Below are positions 660-41,458 of a stretch of 64,000 nucleotides of DNA, piece after piece. The stretch lies in the NCBI RefSeq assembly GCF_041886205.1, contig NZ_CP169029.1; one strand, 5' to 3'. Each line of letters begins with the position of its first letter. Position 1 is the stretch's first letter. The DNA is from Escherichia coli. GTDB lineage: Bacteria > Pseudomonadota > Gammaproteobacteria > Enterobacterales > Enterobacteriaceae. Made by a program: the position numbers and the translations under genes. The notes under the pieces were generated by a model, which was not told the DNA's origin, made no database searches, and saw only the letters and a program-made list of their open reading frames with translations.

Positions 660-1949
660 TTACAAAGTGAAAGAGAGACGTAGCGCCAGCGCAGCCAGCG
701 TCACAAAAAGCACCGGCAGGGTCATGATAATCCCTGTACGGAAGTAATATCCCCAGCTGATAGTCATATTCTTCTGCGAAAGTACGTGCAGCCAGAGTAG
801 CGTAGCCAGGCTACCAATTGGGGTAATTTTCGGTCCCAAATCGCAGCCAATCACGTTGGCATAAACCATCGCTTCTTTGATAACGCCAGATGCCGTGCTG
901 CCATCAATGGACAACGCGCCAACCAGTACCGTCGGCATATTGTTCATAATAGAAGAGAGGAAGGCGGTGAGGAATCCGGTGCCGAGCGTCGCGGCCCACA
1001 GGCCGTTTTCCGCCAGCACGTTGAGTACGCCAGAAAGATATTCCGTTAGTCCGGCATTGCGCAGGCCATAAACCACCAGATACATGCCGAGCGAGAAGAT
1101 GACAATCTGCCAGGGCGCACCGCGCAGGACTTTACCCGTATTAATTGCATGACCGCGTTTAGCGACGGCAAATAATATCAGCGCGCCCACTGCCGCAATG
1201 GCGCTTACCGGAATGCCGAGCGGTTCCAGGACGAAAAATCCCACCAGCAGAAACAGTAAAACAACCCAGCCAGTTTTGAAGGTGGCAGGATCTTTAATCG
1301 CTTCTGCGGGCGATTTCAGCAGCGCCATATCGTAGTTCTGCGGAATATCTTTGCGGAAATAGAGATGCAACATCACCAGCGTGGCAACAATTGCGGCGAT
1401 ATCCACCGGCACCATCACCGATGCGTATTCGCGAAAGCCGAGGCCAAAGAAATCTGCGGAAACGATATTCACCAGGTTGGAGACAATAAGCGGCAGGCTG
1501 GCGGTATCGGCAATGAATCCGGCCGCCATCACGAACGCCAGCGTAGTGCCTTTACTGAACCCTAAAGCCAGCAGCATGGCGATGACAATTGGCGTTAAAA
1601 TCAGCGCCGCGCCATCATTGGCAAACAGAGCTGCAACGGCAGCACCGAGCAGGACAATCCAGGTAAACAGCAAGCGACCGCGTCCATTGCCCCAGCGTGA
1701 GACGTGCAGCGCCGCCCATTCAAAAAAGCCGGACTCATCCAGCAGCAGGCTGATGATAATGACGGCAATAAACGCCGCCGTCGCGTTCCAGACGATATTC
1801 CACACCACCGGAATATCACCCGGATGAACCACGCCCGTAACCAACGCCAGTACCGCGCCGAGCGTTGCACTCCAGCCGATGCCTAAACCTTTCGGCTGCC
1901 AGATAACCAATACGATGGTCAGGACAAAAATAGCGCCTGCCAGTAACAT
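660..1949 (-). CDS. arsB: arsenite/antimonite efflux permease
   Basis: 429-aa polytopic membrane ORF between arsA and arsC; recognised ArsB sequence. Confidence 0.94.
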
Positions 1950-36696: not shown

Positions 36697-37254
36697 TTAC
36701 TGAATAACCAGCGTATTAATGATGTTTTCTGCGGTGGTCTGCGCTTTTTGCTGATCGTCAGCTGGCAGAGTAATTTGCATGGTCAGCAGTTGATTACCCA
36801 CGTTACCCAGAATAACGGAAGAGTACGCCGTCTGGCCTTTCGCGGAGATAATACTGTCTAACTGCTGCATTTTGTGACCTTTCAGCTCAATGGCTTTATT
36901 GGTTACCACTTGCAGCTGCGGATCGCGGCTACGTTGCTGATCTTCCAGACGCTTCGCCAGCACCGCCAGATCTTCTTTCGGATCATCGCCCATGATGACG
37001 ATGACTGCTTTCTGCCCGGTGGCGTCGGACCAGACATGCATGTTATTGGCCTGCGTTCCCAGCTTACCGCTCTGGTCGGTCATATCCGCTGGCAGCGAGA
37101 AACTTAACTTGCCATCAAGCAGGTTGACGGGATTCCCGGTAGCGTTACTTTCCGCGACCGAACCCTGCGCCGTAGCGTTAGTGTCTTTATCATCACAGGC
37201 CGCAAGCCCCATAACCAGCAGGCCAATTCCGACATATTTAACCAGATTGCGCAT
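36697..37254 (-). CDS. dcrB: periplasmic lipoprotein DcrB
   Basis: Track ORF 203 aa; probable start [20 protein letters not shown] (lipobox LAAC) gives 185 aa. Confidence 0.9.
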
Positions 37255-37326
37255 TGACTTCTTCCTTTCGATAAACGGCCATAACGGCTCATTCATCCAT
37301 CTTATCACAACTCTGATAACGAACCT

Positions 37327-37992
37327 TTAACTCGCCTGCAAAGCGTTGATTTCGGATTTATCTGCCAGTCTTTTCAACAGCATATTGAGTAATACACCAT
37401 ACATTGGCAGGAAGAAAACGATACTGATTAACACTTTGAAACAGTAATCGACTAGCGCGATTTCCATCCAGTGTTCAGCCATAAAGGCATCCGGGCTACG
37501 CCAGAAGGCAATGAAGAAGAAGGCCAGTGTGTCGCTGACGTTACCGAACAGTGTGGACGCTGTCGGTGCCAGCCACCAGCGGCGACTCTGACGCAGGCGG
37601 TTAAAAACGTGCACGTCGAGGATCTGTCCCAGCGCGTAGGCCATGAAACTGGCGGTGGCGATACGGGCGACAAACAGGTTGAAGTGGGCGAGTGCGCCGA
37701 ATCCCTGCCATGACCCCATATAAAACAGCGATGAGATGACGTAGGAGATCAGCAATGCGGGGATCATCACCGCAAAGATGATACGACGGGCCAGCGGTGC
37801 GCCAAAAATACGCACAGTCAGGTCGGTAGCGAGAAAGATAAACGGAAAGCTAAACGCGCCCCAGGTGGTGTGAAAACCAAAAATGGAGACGGGAAGCTGA
37901 ACCAGATAGTTACTGGAGGTGATCACCAGAAGATGAAATAACGATAACCAGAACAACGCCTTATAGCGTTGAGTTTGCGAGAAAACGTTCAT
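37327..37992 (-). CDS. yhhQ: queuosine precursor transporter (DUF165 family)
   Basis: 221-aa membrane ORF; recognised YhhQ. Confidence 0.9.
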   Translation of the reverse strand: MNVFSQTQRYKALFWLSLFHLLVITSSNYLVQLPVSIFGFHTTWGAFSFPFIFLATDLTVRIFGAPLARRIIFAVMIPALLISYVISSLFYMGSWQGFGALAHFNLFVARIATASFMAYALGQILDVHVFNRLRQSRRWWLAPTASTLFGNVSDTLAFFFIAFWRSPDAFMAEHWMEIALVDYCFKVLISIVFFLPMYGVLLNMLLKRLADKSEINALQAS

Positions 37993-38212
37993 ATTGTACC
38001 TTTTTGATTAACCATTGGGGTGAGGGAACCCAATACGTACGACACGTCTGTTACCTTAACATAATAACGTGCTTACCCTTTTTTCGAGCCGCCGCATGAT
38101 ACTGCTTTACGTTGACAATGCAATGGTTAATTTTCACGCAATCGTTAACCTGGTTTGCTTACGGACTCACAGGGCGTAAACTAGCGCCGTTTTTTTATGT
38201 GATGAGAAGAAA

Positions 38213-38458
38213 ATGACCGATCTCTTTTCCAGCCCTGACCACATACTCGACGCACTTGGCCTGCGCTGCCCGGAACCCGTAATGATGGTGCGCAAAACAG
38301 TGCGCAATATGCAGCCAGGTGAAACGTTGCTGATTATTGCTGACGATCCGGCGACGACCCGCGATATTCCTGGGTTTTGTACCTTTATGGAACACGAACT
38401 GGTTGCGAAAGAGACGGATGGACTGCCTTATCGTTATTTGATTCGCAAAGGCGGTTGA
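38213..38458 (+). CDS. tusA: sulfurtransferase TusA
   Basis: 81-aa ORF with [11 protein letters not shown] active-site Cys motif. Confidence 0.95.
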
Positions 38459-38461
38459 TGG

Positions 38462-38557
38462 GGGCTGATTGGCTTCGATGCCGCCTTTTCCCCTCACCCT
38501 AACCCTCTCCCCAGAGGGGCGAGGGGACCGATCGCGCTCAATGTTGCGATCGGTTTG
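38462..38557. repeat. intergenic repeat plus hairpin between tusA and zntA
   Basis: cccctcaccctaaccctctccccagaggggcgagggga (G/C-rich dyad) followed by hairpin ccgatcgc...gcgatcgg and a T-tract; probable tusA terminator. Confidence 0.5.
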
Positions 38558-38559
38558 CC

Positions 38560-40758
38560 TTATCTCCTGCGCAACAATCTTAACGCATTCGCCGTCACCA
38601 GCACCGTCGCACCCGTATCTGCCAGCACCGCCAGCCACAACCCGGTCATCCCTAACAGCGTGGTGACGAGGAAGATCCCTTTCAGCCCCAGCGCAATGGT
38701 GATGTTCTGGCGGATATTGGCGTGAGTGGCGCGTGCCAGTTCAATCATTTGCACCAGGCCGCGCAGGTGGTTATGGGTTAATGCTGCGTCGGCGGTTTCC
38801 AGCGCCACGTCTGTGCCACTGCCCATTGCAATCCCAATGGCGGCAGCTTTCATCGCTGGCGCGTCGTTAATACCGTCACCGACCATCGCCAGCGGCGCAT
38901 GTTGATTCAGCTCGGTCACCGCTTTGACTTTATCTTCCGGCAACAGGCCCGCTTTAAACTCCAGCCCCAGCTCCCCGGCAATTGCCGCCGCTGCGCGTGG
39001 ATTATCGCCGGTGAGGATCACTCCTTTAACCCCCAGCGCGTTCAGTTCACTGATGGCAGTTGCAGCGTCGGCGCGCAGGGTATCCTGCAATGCAATGATA
39101 CCCAGCACGTCATCATTACGTACTACCAGCACAACCGTTTGCCCGGCGCTTTCCAGTTCATTAATCAAACCAGCAAATGCATCAGCGGGATGTTTCCCGG
39201 CAGCGCAAATCAATACGCGCTCACCGTTAACCTGCGCTTCAATGCCAGACCCGACCAGCGCCCGCTGTGATTCGGCGGCGGGAATGGCGAGTGCAGCAAC
39301 CTGTGCTTCGCGCACGATGGCTTGCGCCAGTGGATGCGTCGCGCCTTGCTCGACCGCCGCCGCCAGTGTCAGCAGTTCAGATTCACTAATACCCGTTGCC
39401 GGATGAATCGCGGTAACGCGCGGTTTACCGACGGTCAGCGTACCGGTTTTATCAAACGCCACCTGAGTAACACGACCTAGTTGTTCCAGCGCCGCTCCGC
39501 CTTTAATCAACGCCCCACGACGCGCTGCTGCCGCCAGCCCGGAGGTAATCGCCGCGGGCGTGGAGATAACTAACGCACACGGGCAGCCAATCAGCAGCAG
39601 CGTCAGGCCTTTATAAATCCACTCCTGCCAGCTGGCGGCAAACAGCAGCGGTGGCACCAGCGTCACCAGCAGGGCGACGGCCATAATCGCTGGCGTATAA
39701 ATACGGCTGAAACGGTCGATAAACCGCTCAATGGGGGCGCGGCGCTCTTCGGCTTCTTCGATCAGTTTCAGAATCCGGTCAATGGCGCTGGCACCCGGTT
39801 CTGACAGCACTTCCAGCGTTACCAGACGGTCTACGCTGGTGGCTCCTGCAGGAACTTTATCGCCCGTTGCGCGCTCCACCGGAATGGATTCTCCGGTCAG
39901 GGCGCTTTCATCAAAACTGGCAAACGGTGAGAGCAGTTTACCGTCGGCAGGCAAACGCCCACCTGCGGCGACTTCAATCACATCGCCAGGCCGCAGGCTG
40001 TTAATCGCCACCTCTTCCCGCTCACCGTTACGCAGGCGCGTGGCGGTTTCTGGTTTCAGCGCCATTAAAGCGCTAACGCCCTGACGCGCGCGGCTGGCGG
40101 CCCAGCCTTCCAGTCGTTCACCAATCAAAAACAGCAGCAACACCATCGCAGCTTCAGCCGTTGCGCCAATAAACAGTGCACCAATAGCGGCTACGCTCAT
40201 TAAGGTTTCAATGGCGAAGTAGCTGCCGGATTTGATCAGCCGTAATGCCTGACGAGCAATCGGGTACAGCCCAACCAGCGTGGTCGCGATAAACGCCAGT
40301 TGCCCGAACGGATGATTAAATTGCTCCAAACCCCAGCTGATTGCCATCATCACGATAAGCGTAATCAGCGGCAGATTCTCTTTCAGGCGCGATGCTTGTG
40401 GCTCGTCGGCGGCCTGCTCATCGCGCAGGGAATAGCCCGCTTTTTGCACCGTAGATTCAACCTGGGCACGGATGTCATTGTCGGCATCAACCACCAGTTT
40501 TTCGGTGGCGAACAACACCTGCACCTGATTCACGCCTGCAAGCTGGCGCACGGCATTTTCTACCTTGCGCGCACAGGCGGCGCAGTCCATGCCGCTGACT
40601 TTCCAGCTATAGCGGGTGCCGGAGACGTTTTCAGAGAGCGTTGGCGAGCTGGAACATGCGCCGTCGCAGCAACAGTCGTTGGCGTTCTGTACCGTGGTTA
40701 GCGGTTTGAACGCAGCAAATTGAGGGGCTTTCTTGCCGTGATTGTCAGGAGTCGACAT
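38560..40758 (-). CDS. zntA: Zn/Cd/Pb-translocating P1B-type ATPase
   Basis: 732-aa ORF; N-terminal GMDCAAC metal-binding motif, CPC transmembrane motif, DKTGTLT phosphorylation site. Confidence 0.96.
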   Translation of the reverse strand: MSTPDNHGKKAPQFAAFKPLTTVQNANDCCCDGACSSSPTLSENVSGTRYSWKVSGMDCAACARKVENAVRQLAGVNQVQVLFATEKLVVDADNDIRAQVESTVQKAGYSLRDEQAADEPQASRLKENLPLITLIVMMAISWGLEQFNHPFGQLAFIATTLVGLYPIARQALRLIKSGSYFAIETLMSVAAIGALFIGATAEAAMVLLLFLIGERLEGWAASRARQGVSALMALKPETATRLRNGEREEVAINSLRPGDVIEVAAGGRLPADGKLLSPFASFDESALTGESIPVERATGDKVPAGATSVDRLVTLEVLSEPGASAIDRILKLIEEAEERRAPIERFIDRFSRIYTPAIMAVALLVTLVPPLLFAASWQEWIYKGLTLLLIGCPCALVISTPAAITSGLAAAARRGALIKGGAALEQLGRVTQVAFDKTGTLTVGKPRVTAIHPATGISESELLTLAAAVEQGATHPLAQAIVREAQVAALAIPAAESQRALVGSGIEAQVNGERVLICAAGKHPADAFAGLINELESAGQTVVLVVRNDDVLGIIALQDTLRADAATAISELNALGVKGVILTGDNPRAAAAIAGELGLEFKAGLLPEDKVKAVTELNQHAPLAMVGDGINDAPAMKAAAIGIAMGSGTDVALETADAALTHNHLRGLVQMIELARATHANIRQNITIALGLKGIFLVTTLLGMTGLWLAVLADTGATVLVTANALRLLRRR

Positions 40759-40800
40759 GGCATCCTCCGGTTAAGTTTTTTCTCATTAACCGAAGGATAC

Positions 40801-40822
40801 ACTCTGGAGTCGACTCCAGAGT
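40801..40822 (-). promoter_or_regulatory. ZntR (MerR-family) operator in zntA promoter
   Basis: Perfect 22-bp palindrome actctggagtcgactccagagt between a ttgact -35 hexamer and the -10 region upstream of zntA. Confidence 0.8.
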
Positions 40823-40831
40823 CAAGTTTTA

Positions 40832-41458
40832 TCAGAGATACAGCGAGCGGACGATCAGGAAGTGACCGGCAAAGTAGCAGGCCGCAGCAATCGCGTTATC
40901 CGCACGGAAGCGTCGGCGATAGTGGCTCCCCAGCCAGACAAAGTTACTGATAAACAGCAACGAAGCGCCAACAAACGCAGAGAGCGCCGGAGCGGTCGGA
41001 CGGAAGAACCACAGTTCACCTGCCAGCCACACCATCACCAGCGTCATGCCGATAAACGTGCAGATAGGCCAACGGTACTCTTCCAGCCGCGTCCAGATAA
41101 TCGCCAGTAACAGCGCGCCCAGAACCAGCAGCACCAGTGGCAGAGGCCAGAAGAAAGAGAGCGTCATCTGACTGGCGAAATAGATGGTGTACAGCAGGTG
41201 CGAGAGGAAAAACGCGCCGATGGCGTACATCAGACGTTGACGTGGCAACAGGGTTAGCGCATCGCCCAGCAGTGAGGCGCACAGCCCTGCCAGCACCAGA
41301 TAGCTAATGGCGTCGAACATCGGCGCTTGCCAGGCCAGTAACAGCAGGAGAAGAAGGGTTAACGGTTTAAACACCCAGCGTTGCCAGGTTGGCCCACGAT
41401 ACGATGCATCCACAGATAGCCATGCGGAAAGACAGACAGCGATAAACGACCAAAGCAT
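40832..41458 (-). CDS. yhhN: inner membrane protein YhhN (lysoplasmalogenase-like family)
   Basis: 208-aa multi-TM ORF. Confidence 0.88.

Follow-up and report, generated by a model that had tools for sequence, protein, structure and literature searches.

The segment under study lies in a window of 64,000 nucleotides of Escherichia coli DNA (RefSeq assembly GCF_041886205.1, contig NZ_CP169029.1), between tusA (38213-38458, plus strand, 81 aa) and zntA (38560-40758, minus strand, 732 aa). Both coding sequences were taken from the list of open reading frames and from the RefSeq annotation of homologous regions; the names rest on BLAST matches and on how RefSeq annotates the homologous region of K-12. 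The two genes are convergent and, from stop codon to stop codon, are separated by a spacer of 101 bp (38459-38559), the zntA stop codon occupying 38560-38562. In the K-12 RefSeq annotation this spacer is devoid of any feature, and no promoter-like site was found by scanning 38459-38559. The Rfam 15 covariance models, run on 37000-41000 with E-values up to 10, gave no match at the BoxC site described below; the sole match in the region is a chance 14-nt ssnA similarity at 39303-39316, scoring 16.3 bits against a gathering score of 37.3.

Two open reading frames overlapping the spacer were rejected as mechanical. The first, of 65 aa (38469-38666, plus strand), crosses the non-coding repeat (…PLTLTLSPEGRGD…) and then runs antisense to zntA; the second, of 147 aa (38195-38638, minus strand), runs antisense through tusA and through the non-coding repeat. 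Translations of frames such as the 65-aa one are likely to give rise to spurious 'hypothetical protein' annotations where BoxC is present. On the other side of tusA, in the divergent yhhQ-tusA intergenic region, a terminator-like site is found on the plus strand (38173-38198; GGCGTAAACTAGCGCC followed by GTTTTTTTAT), 25 nt before the tusA start codon at 38213. A short upstream transcript may end there, or the site may act as a leader or attenuator.

Identity of the dyad

The original prediction described, from the sequence of the spacer, a G/C-rich dyad resembling a dispersed intergenic repeat. The minus strand of 38490-38526 reads CCCCTCGCCCCTCTGGGGAGAGGGTTAGGGTGAGGGG, and contains the only exact match within the window (38491-38525, minus strand; expected in shuffled sequences, 0.00) to the TMECO consensus CCCTCNCCC-N3-6-GGGNGAGGG-N3-GGGNGAGGG, proposed by Holder et al. 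(2015). In MG1655 the pattern falls at 3608684, in agreement with the coordinates in Table 1 of the same paper, where TMECO no. 16, of type 'A mm', is placed at 3608684-3608719. Holder et al. (2015) equated TMECOs with the older BoxC and PIT elements. The site is also listed by Kaplan et al. (2016) as HPG1 no. 40, with the entry zntA>>>48, 3608708+, 32<<<tusA, i.e. at distances of 48 nt from the end of zntA and 32 nt from that of tusA. The dyad is an already known and catalogued BoxC (PIT/TMECO/HPG1) copy, published twice; it shares with the family the sequence, the arrangement of C-block, loop, G-block, TTA and second G-block, the flanks, the intergenic position and the multi-copy distribution. 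The name PIT element is that of Hoyne/Maher.

The assignment to a dispersed family was borne out when the 101-nt spacer was compared by blastn with complete E. coli genomes: 87,236 places were found in 5,425 of 5,426 of them, with a median of 17 and a maximum of 32 places per genome, and 20 in an MG1655 record, which contradicts a single-copy status. All of the 18 K-12 loci fetched from Holder's table (18 of 18) lie between annotated genes. No further copy is present in the window within 3 mismatches, nor does the pattern CCCTCTCCC..GGGAGAGGG occur in it. BoxC had been recovered as a known E. coli family by Petrillo et al. (2008), in whose table the original unit is about 56 bp long, with 32 described copies, 22 of which were detected. 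As seen here, it is a G/C-rich, imperfectly palindromic intergenic repeat of about 70-90 bp, of which an E. coli genome contains about 15-30 copies. The core of the tusA-zntA copy is no different from that of other copies, and is identical to those of TMECO nos. 9, 19 and 22; its sole peculiarity is a 5' flank able to pair with 9 nt of adjacent sequence.

Structure of the BoxC copy and of the adjacent hairpin

Read along the minus strand, the core (38490-38526, type 'A mm' in the catalogue of Holder) is composed of a C-block CCCCTCGCCCC (38516-38526), a TCT loop (38513-38515), a first G-block GGGGAGAGGG (38503-38512), a TTA loop (38500-38502) and a second G-block GGGTGAGGGG (38490-38499). The predicted dyad is present in its place; it is larger than described, and is in fact one of two alternative dyads. 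The outer one, TCCCCTCACCC/GGGCGAGGGGA, joins 38489-38499 with 38517-38527 over 11 nt with 91% complementarity; the alternative one, CCCTCT/AGAGGG, joins 38503-38508 with 38513-38518. The C-block pairs with the first G-block at 8 of 9 positions, with one G.A mismatch, and with the second at 9 of 9, with one G.U pair.

The ability to fold was evaluated by predicting the minimum free energy of the transcripts of both strands. For the BoxC RNA, the outer pairing is the one adopted, with -23.5 kcal/mol for the zntA strand and -18.5 kcal/mol for the tusA strand. A 111-nt region including the adjacent hairpin reaches -50.1 kcal/mol (plus strand) and -48.3 kcal/mol (minus strand), with z-scores of -4.1 and -3.8, respectively, and none of 200 shuffles folded as well, contrary to what would be expected of a sequence with no stable structure. 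The G-rich part, taken alone, is a canonical four-tract quadruplex motif, with a predicted energy of -12.6 kcal/mol; when the C-block is present, the hairpin is preferred over the quadruplex by quadruplex-aware energy prediction.

Sequence conservation extends beyond the 36-nt core. Seventeen type A copies were aligned in register and by MAFFT, yielding on the minus strand a 3' flank with consensus GAAcAgGCnnGCAC, which in the window reads AAAAGGCGGCAT (38478-38489), and, from the alignment of the K-12 copies, a 5' flank with consensus cAAAaanGyGCnCGnnCgGTC, corresponding to CAACATTGAGCGCGATCGGT followed by the core C (38527-38547). Both conserved flanks are present in the window copy, where CAACATTGAGCGCGATCGGTC (plus strand, 38527-38547) and GAAAAGGCGGCAT (38478-38490) fit the consensus of the 17 copies. 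Blastn matches from other copies reach 38479-38482 on the tusA side and 38539-38540 on the zntA side.

An additional block, cTGATGACAAA, is located about 25-35 nt 5' of the core in the K-12 type A copies L009, L011, L012, L018 and L020. In four of these five (L011, L012, L018 and L020) it is directly preceded by a locus-specific G/C hairpin, such as the gcvP terminator GGCGCTTCGGCGCCTTTTT. The BoxC unit may extend further than has been described; alternatively, it may be preferentially located just past hairpins.

A second hairpin (38527-38554) stands beside the BoxC copy, as originally predicted. Its arms, ACCGATCGC (38527-38535) and GCGATCGGT (38546-38554), are perfectly complementary over 9 nt and enclose a 10-nt loop (38536-38545), and the structure reaches to within 5 nt of the zntA stop codon. 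Its RNA folds with -20.1 kcal/mol and a z-score of -3.6 on the plus strand, and with -17.7 kcal/mol on the minus strand. The sequence next to it, in the direction of the tusA strand, is TTGCCTTATCT. The proximal arm coincides with the conserved 5' flank of BoxC, and only the distal arm is local sequence. The hairpin region is found also in Escherichia species devoid of the BoxC core, which marks it as older local sequence.

In other alleles and species the hairpin is weaker (-7 to -14.1 kcal/mol, z-scores between -0.5 and +1.6), and much of the difference in strength between alleles is accounted for by a 7-nt indel on the distal side. Over 8 Escherichia sequences, the pairing is kept in 84.7% of the cells of the alignment, as compared to 21-37% when the partners are slid. 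Two compensatory pairs are observed in the same set (C-G/U-G/U-A and G-C/A-U/G-U), and faintly suggest a conserved structure. Covariation was discarded as a proof of the hairpin, since 32 of 500 shuffles do equally well on only 8 sequences. The second hairpin is a separate and older local structure, which uses the BoxC 5' flank as one of its arms.

A comparable relation is observed on the tusA side, where the BoxC flank at 38481-38488 (CCGCCTTT) forms an 8-nt perfect inverted repeat with the last tusA codons (38447-38454, AAAGGCGG). Both flanks of this copy are in this way complementary to unique sequence lying just outside, by 8 nt on the tusA side and by the 9-nt hairpin on the other; this may be a coincidence.

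Spacer alleles, polymorphism at other sites and distribution of the motif

At least four alleles of the tusA-zntA spacer are found in E. coli, and different states in four other Escherichia species, whose spacers were retrieved by a degenerate-codon scan for the 3' end of tusA. E. coli SCPM-O-B-8794, in which the sequence downstream of tusA is unrelated, was left out of the alignment. The compact junction of the window, with the hairpin directly against zntA, is found in single copy in 4,570 of the 5,426 E. coli genomes (84%); alleles with an eroded or missing core account for about 16%. Only the window allele has the whole BoxC core. That of E. coli 8178 has 3 mismatches, and those of E. coli JCM 5491, E. 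albertii and Escherichia sp. E1V33 are eroded, the last one by a deletion of 6 nt; in strains 8178 and JCM 5491 the degenerate BoxC is followed by about 170 bp of REP elements. The core is absent from E. coli 2D, which keeps ACCGATCGCGCTCAAT, the REPs and an ORF of 102 aa, and from E. whittamii and Escherichia sp. MOD1-EC7003, where REP-like sequence takes its place. In the window spacer (38459-38559) no REP consensus palindrome, of the GCCGGATG...CATCCGGC / GCCTGATGCGACGC type, is present.

All the alleles lacking or eroding the core contain the hairpin region, and in the alignment all four other Escherichia species retain it together with a REP and the small ORF. The latter encodes a hydrophobic product of 102 aa (WP_000385055.1, 'hypothetical protein'), matches no Pfam family, and is located in the tusA-zntA interval of some E. 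coli and of the four species (714-1022, plus strand, in locus L022; downstream of tusA also in L148, L150, L151 and L152); it is deleted in the window-type allele. From the aligned sequences, the ancestral order was likely tusA - BoxC - hairpin region - REP - small ORF - zntA, and the window allele is likely to have arisen from this arrangement when the REPs and the small ORF were lost. Selection or gene conversion, rather than neutrality, could be responsible for a core that is still perfect in most E. coli, though the copy is older than the separation of the Escherichia species.

Six other BoxC sites were compared in their filled and alternative forms. At pstB-pstA (L016 versus L145) a clean presence/absence of 92 bp was observed, with an 8-bp direct duplication (AACCGTGT); by this comparison the unit consists of the core, preceded by a 5' extension of 28 nt and followed by about 20 nt at its 3' end. 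At soxR-ghxP (L002 versus L146) the indel is equally clean, spans 178 bp and is accompanied by a 24-bp direct duplication (ACAAAACTAAAGCGCCACAAGGGC), which covers the 5' arm and the loop of the soxR terminator, overlapping the ryjA sRNA gene. As judged from these sequences, the clean polymorphisms with duplications suggest insertion events with a variable target duplication. At yjdP-phnP (L019 versus L153) the difference is a 70-bp deletion between two 9-bp repeats of the C-block (TCGCCCCTC). The remaining sites show replacements of a segment: by 14 nt resembling the BoxC 5' flank at fimH-gntP (L020 versus L154), by a different hairpin at adk-hemH (L008 versus L144), and by REP elements in the same position at wzxC-wcaK (L003 versus L147). 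A target-site duplication of fixed length was considered as evidence of transposition and rejected, the borders being of 8 bp or 24 bp, or corresponding to an internal-repeat deletion or to replacements.

Similar behaviour is known for ERIC/IRU and for the Neisseria Correia/NEMIS elements, which are likewise small, non-coding, palindromic units with presence/absence polymorphism. As with these miniature inverted-repeat elements, clean indels flanked by direct duplications are seen at two of the BoxC sites; the BoxC duplications, however, are of unequal length (8 and 24 bp), and its other empty sites are replacements or deletions. We know of no transposon-type terminal inverted repeats in BoxC and of no partner transposase.

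The 21-nt G-rich motif GGGNGAGGGTTAGGGTGAGGG (also given as GGGAGAGGGTTAGGGTGAGGG) has identical copies in IMG/VR contigs (predicted viral or prophage), at least 120 stretches of which, with GC contents of 43-70%, contain it. Among the 84 matches in the 80 IMG/VR loci listed (L024-L103), 35 have the full TMECO layout; in many of the others listed the first loop is longer and the flanks resemble GGCACGTCCCCTCTCCCC...GGGGCAGCC; a layout GGCACGTCCCCTCTCCCC-loop-GGGGAGAGGGTTAGGGTGAGGGGCAGCC is shared by many copies. BoxC matches were also found in plasmid or chromid records of Sinorhizobium, Azospirillum, Rhizobium, Shinella, Pantoea, Enterobacter and Klebsiella, and the 21-nt motif in replicons of Sinorhizobium, Rhizobium, Azospirillum, Shinella and Variovorax (plasmid matches H118-H121). 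Similar GCAC-containing flanks surround the motif in rhizobia, Azospirillum, Variovorax and many of the predicted viral or prophage contigs.

Transcription across the spacer and possible roles

The two structures had been proposed to act as a terminator or as an mRNA-stability element between the convergent genes. Transcription termination was analyzed by looking for sequence signals and by using published maps of 3' ends. An intrinsic terminator combines a G/C-rich stem-loop with a U-rich tract of about 7-9 nt; no U-run follows the BoxC stem on either strand, the sequence past the stems being UUAGGGUG or AAAAGG in the zntA direction and ACCGAUCG in the tusA direction, and a consensus terminator scan of 38459-38559 returned no site. 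In earlier functional tests, PIT elements showed neither promoter nor terminator activity and had no effect on RNA polymerase, according to the account given by Holder et al. (2015), which refers to other copies, assayed in reporter constructs. The complete Term-seq table of Adams et al. (2021), covering three growth conditions, contains no 3' end on either strand between 3605771 and 3609217 of MG1655, an interval that includes the spacer; 3'-end mapping had been suggested as a check in the original prediction. The absence of a peak may only mean that tusA and zntA were poorly expressed in the conditions used. The SMRT-Cappable-seq supplements make no mention of tusA or zntA.

A significant Rho-dependent termination region is reported on the tusA strand at MG1655 3607955, inside antisense zntA (Adams et al. 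2021, supplementary file 2), with upstream/downstream reads of 90/24 without bicyclomycin (BCM) and 128/100 with it, the regions being called in 800-nt windows. Assuming that zntA contains no indels, the position corresponds to about 39254 in the window, approximately 700 nt past the hairpin. Its location on the tusA strand suggests that some transcription crosses the spacer; the antisense-zntA transcripts could also start at an internal promoter rather than at tusA. From these data we infer that BoxC itself neither ends nor starts transcription. The second hairpin and the UUUGCCUUAU that follows it may form a weak intrinsic terminator for tusA only. Like Rho-independent terminators, which are also G/C-rich stem-loops located just past stop codons, it has a stem of -20 kcal/mol followed in the tusA direction by three U; unlike them, it has a 10-nt loop, an interrupted U-tract and no mapped 3' end, and BoxC lacks a U-tract altogether.

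Taken together, the data probably describe a BoxC copy which is an old resident downstream of tusA, with no demonstrated job there. With a C-block and two alternative G-blocks, the unit is predicted to form a very stable stem-loop when transcribed in either direction. Transcripts from tusA would cross the spacer and be stopped by Rho inside antisense zntA. At most, the composite would place stable stem-loops in the 3' untranslated regions of the tusA and zntA mRNAs, where they could, by analogy with REP elements, slow down 3'-to-5' exonucleases. At the DNA level, BoxC may mark a spot prone to deletion, erosion and replacement. The best reading appears to be that the copy has no dedicated role in the expression of tusA or zntA. 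The observations behind the original prediction are confirmed, and its interpretation is partly supported.

An alternative reading, in which the stems act as mRNA-stability elements by blocking 3'-to-5' exonucleases in the untranslated regions of tusA and zntA without terminating transcription, is suggested by the analogy with REPs but seems unlikely. REP/BIME (PU) elements have in common with BoxC a small size, a high G/C content, an imperfect palindrome and a dispersed distribution restricted to intergenic regions, often to 3' UTRs; their sequence is unrelated to BoxC and lacks the layout of one C-block and two G-blocks. They are known for mRNA 3' protection, for binding gyrase, IHF and Pol I, and for their RAYT transposases. 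To our knowledge no such role is documented for BoxC. REPs replace or accompany BoxC in the tusA-zntA spacer of other strains and species, and the interchange of the two at wzxC-wcaK, as well as at tusA-zntA in E. whittamii, agrees with such a role. So do the folding of both strands (BoxC -18 to -24 kcal/mol, hairpin -18 to -20 kcal/mol) directly 3' of the stop codons and the general closeness of the motifs to ORF 3' ends (Kaplan et al. 2016). Term-seq, however, records stable processed ends too, and has none at these stems, and the core is eroded or missing in the alleles of about 16% of E. coli genomes.

It is rather doubtful, too, that BoxC is the footprint of an insertion process for which no enzyme is known, with a unit bearing the invariant 21-nt G-rich motif placed next to hairpins downstream of genes. 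The proposal is left open by the two clean filled/empty pairs with direct duplications (8 bp at pstB-pstA, 24 bp at soxR), by the 5'-flank-like sequence still present in the 'empty' tusA-zntA and fimH-gntP alleles, and by the common motif with GCAC-containing flanks in rhizobia, Azospirillum, Variovorax and viral or prophage contigs. If it were true, the tusA-side hairpin, conserved in sequence across Escherichia and with its two compensatory pairs, would be the landing site.

An action at the DNA level is very unlikely. The G-rich strand, when unwound, would form a triplex or a G-quadruplex, stall polymerases and act as a structural switch or a source of local instability. As single-stranded DNA, identical sequences have indeed been reported in vitro to adopt an intrastrand triplex, by CD and NMR (Holder et al. 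2015), or a G-quadruplex in transition with a hairpin (Kaplan et al. 2016). Holder et al. (2015) also noted an association with variable loci, and the quadruplex predicted for the G-rich part alone, the number of spacer alleles in E. coli and the differing states in the other species, and the deletion between C-block repeats at yjdP-phnP all point in the same direction. Against it, DMS footprinting gave no support for a stable triplex in vivo, and a duplex forms once the complementary strand is present (Holder et al. 2015); the hairpin is predicted to outcompete the quadruplex next to the C-block; and REP-carrying intergenic regions vary anyway, so that the instability need not come from BoxC.

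That the composite is a bidirectional intrinsic terminator ending both convergent transcripts is highly improbable: two very stable stem-loops do lie between the genes, three U do follow the second hairpin in the tusA direction, and Kaplan et al. (2016) speculated on a terminator role for some copies, but what lies past both stems in the zntA direction is C-rich or G/A-rich and contains no U-tract, no site came out of the terminator scan, PIT elements were inactive in the tests cited by Holder et al. (2015), no Term-seq end maps to the spacer while Rho acts about 700 nt downstream on the tusA strand, and the strong hairpin is specific to one allele, those of other alleles and species reaching -7 to -14 kcal/mol with z-scores of about 0.

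On these grounds the segment should be annotated as 'BoxC (PIT/TMECO) repeat, copy between tusA and zntA', and not as a terminator, a small RNA or a 65-aa ORF. The BoxC family is a 30-year-old puzzle, having a highly conserved motif and several possible nucleic-acid folds. We know of no function for it, and of no means by which it spreads. The identity of the 21-nt motif in distant Proteobacteria is not easily explained and counts against a purely junk element; over such distances, it is a question that concerns the BoxC family rather than the tusA-zntA copy. At this locus, the Escherichia alleles, in which the hairpin is conserved and the core next to it is intact, eroded, deleted or replaced by REPs, constitute a natural allelic series for BoxC effects, which would be useful in testing an influence on mRNA 3' ends or on local genome stability.
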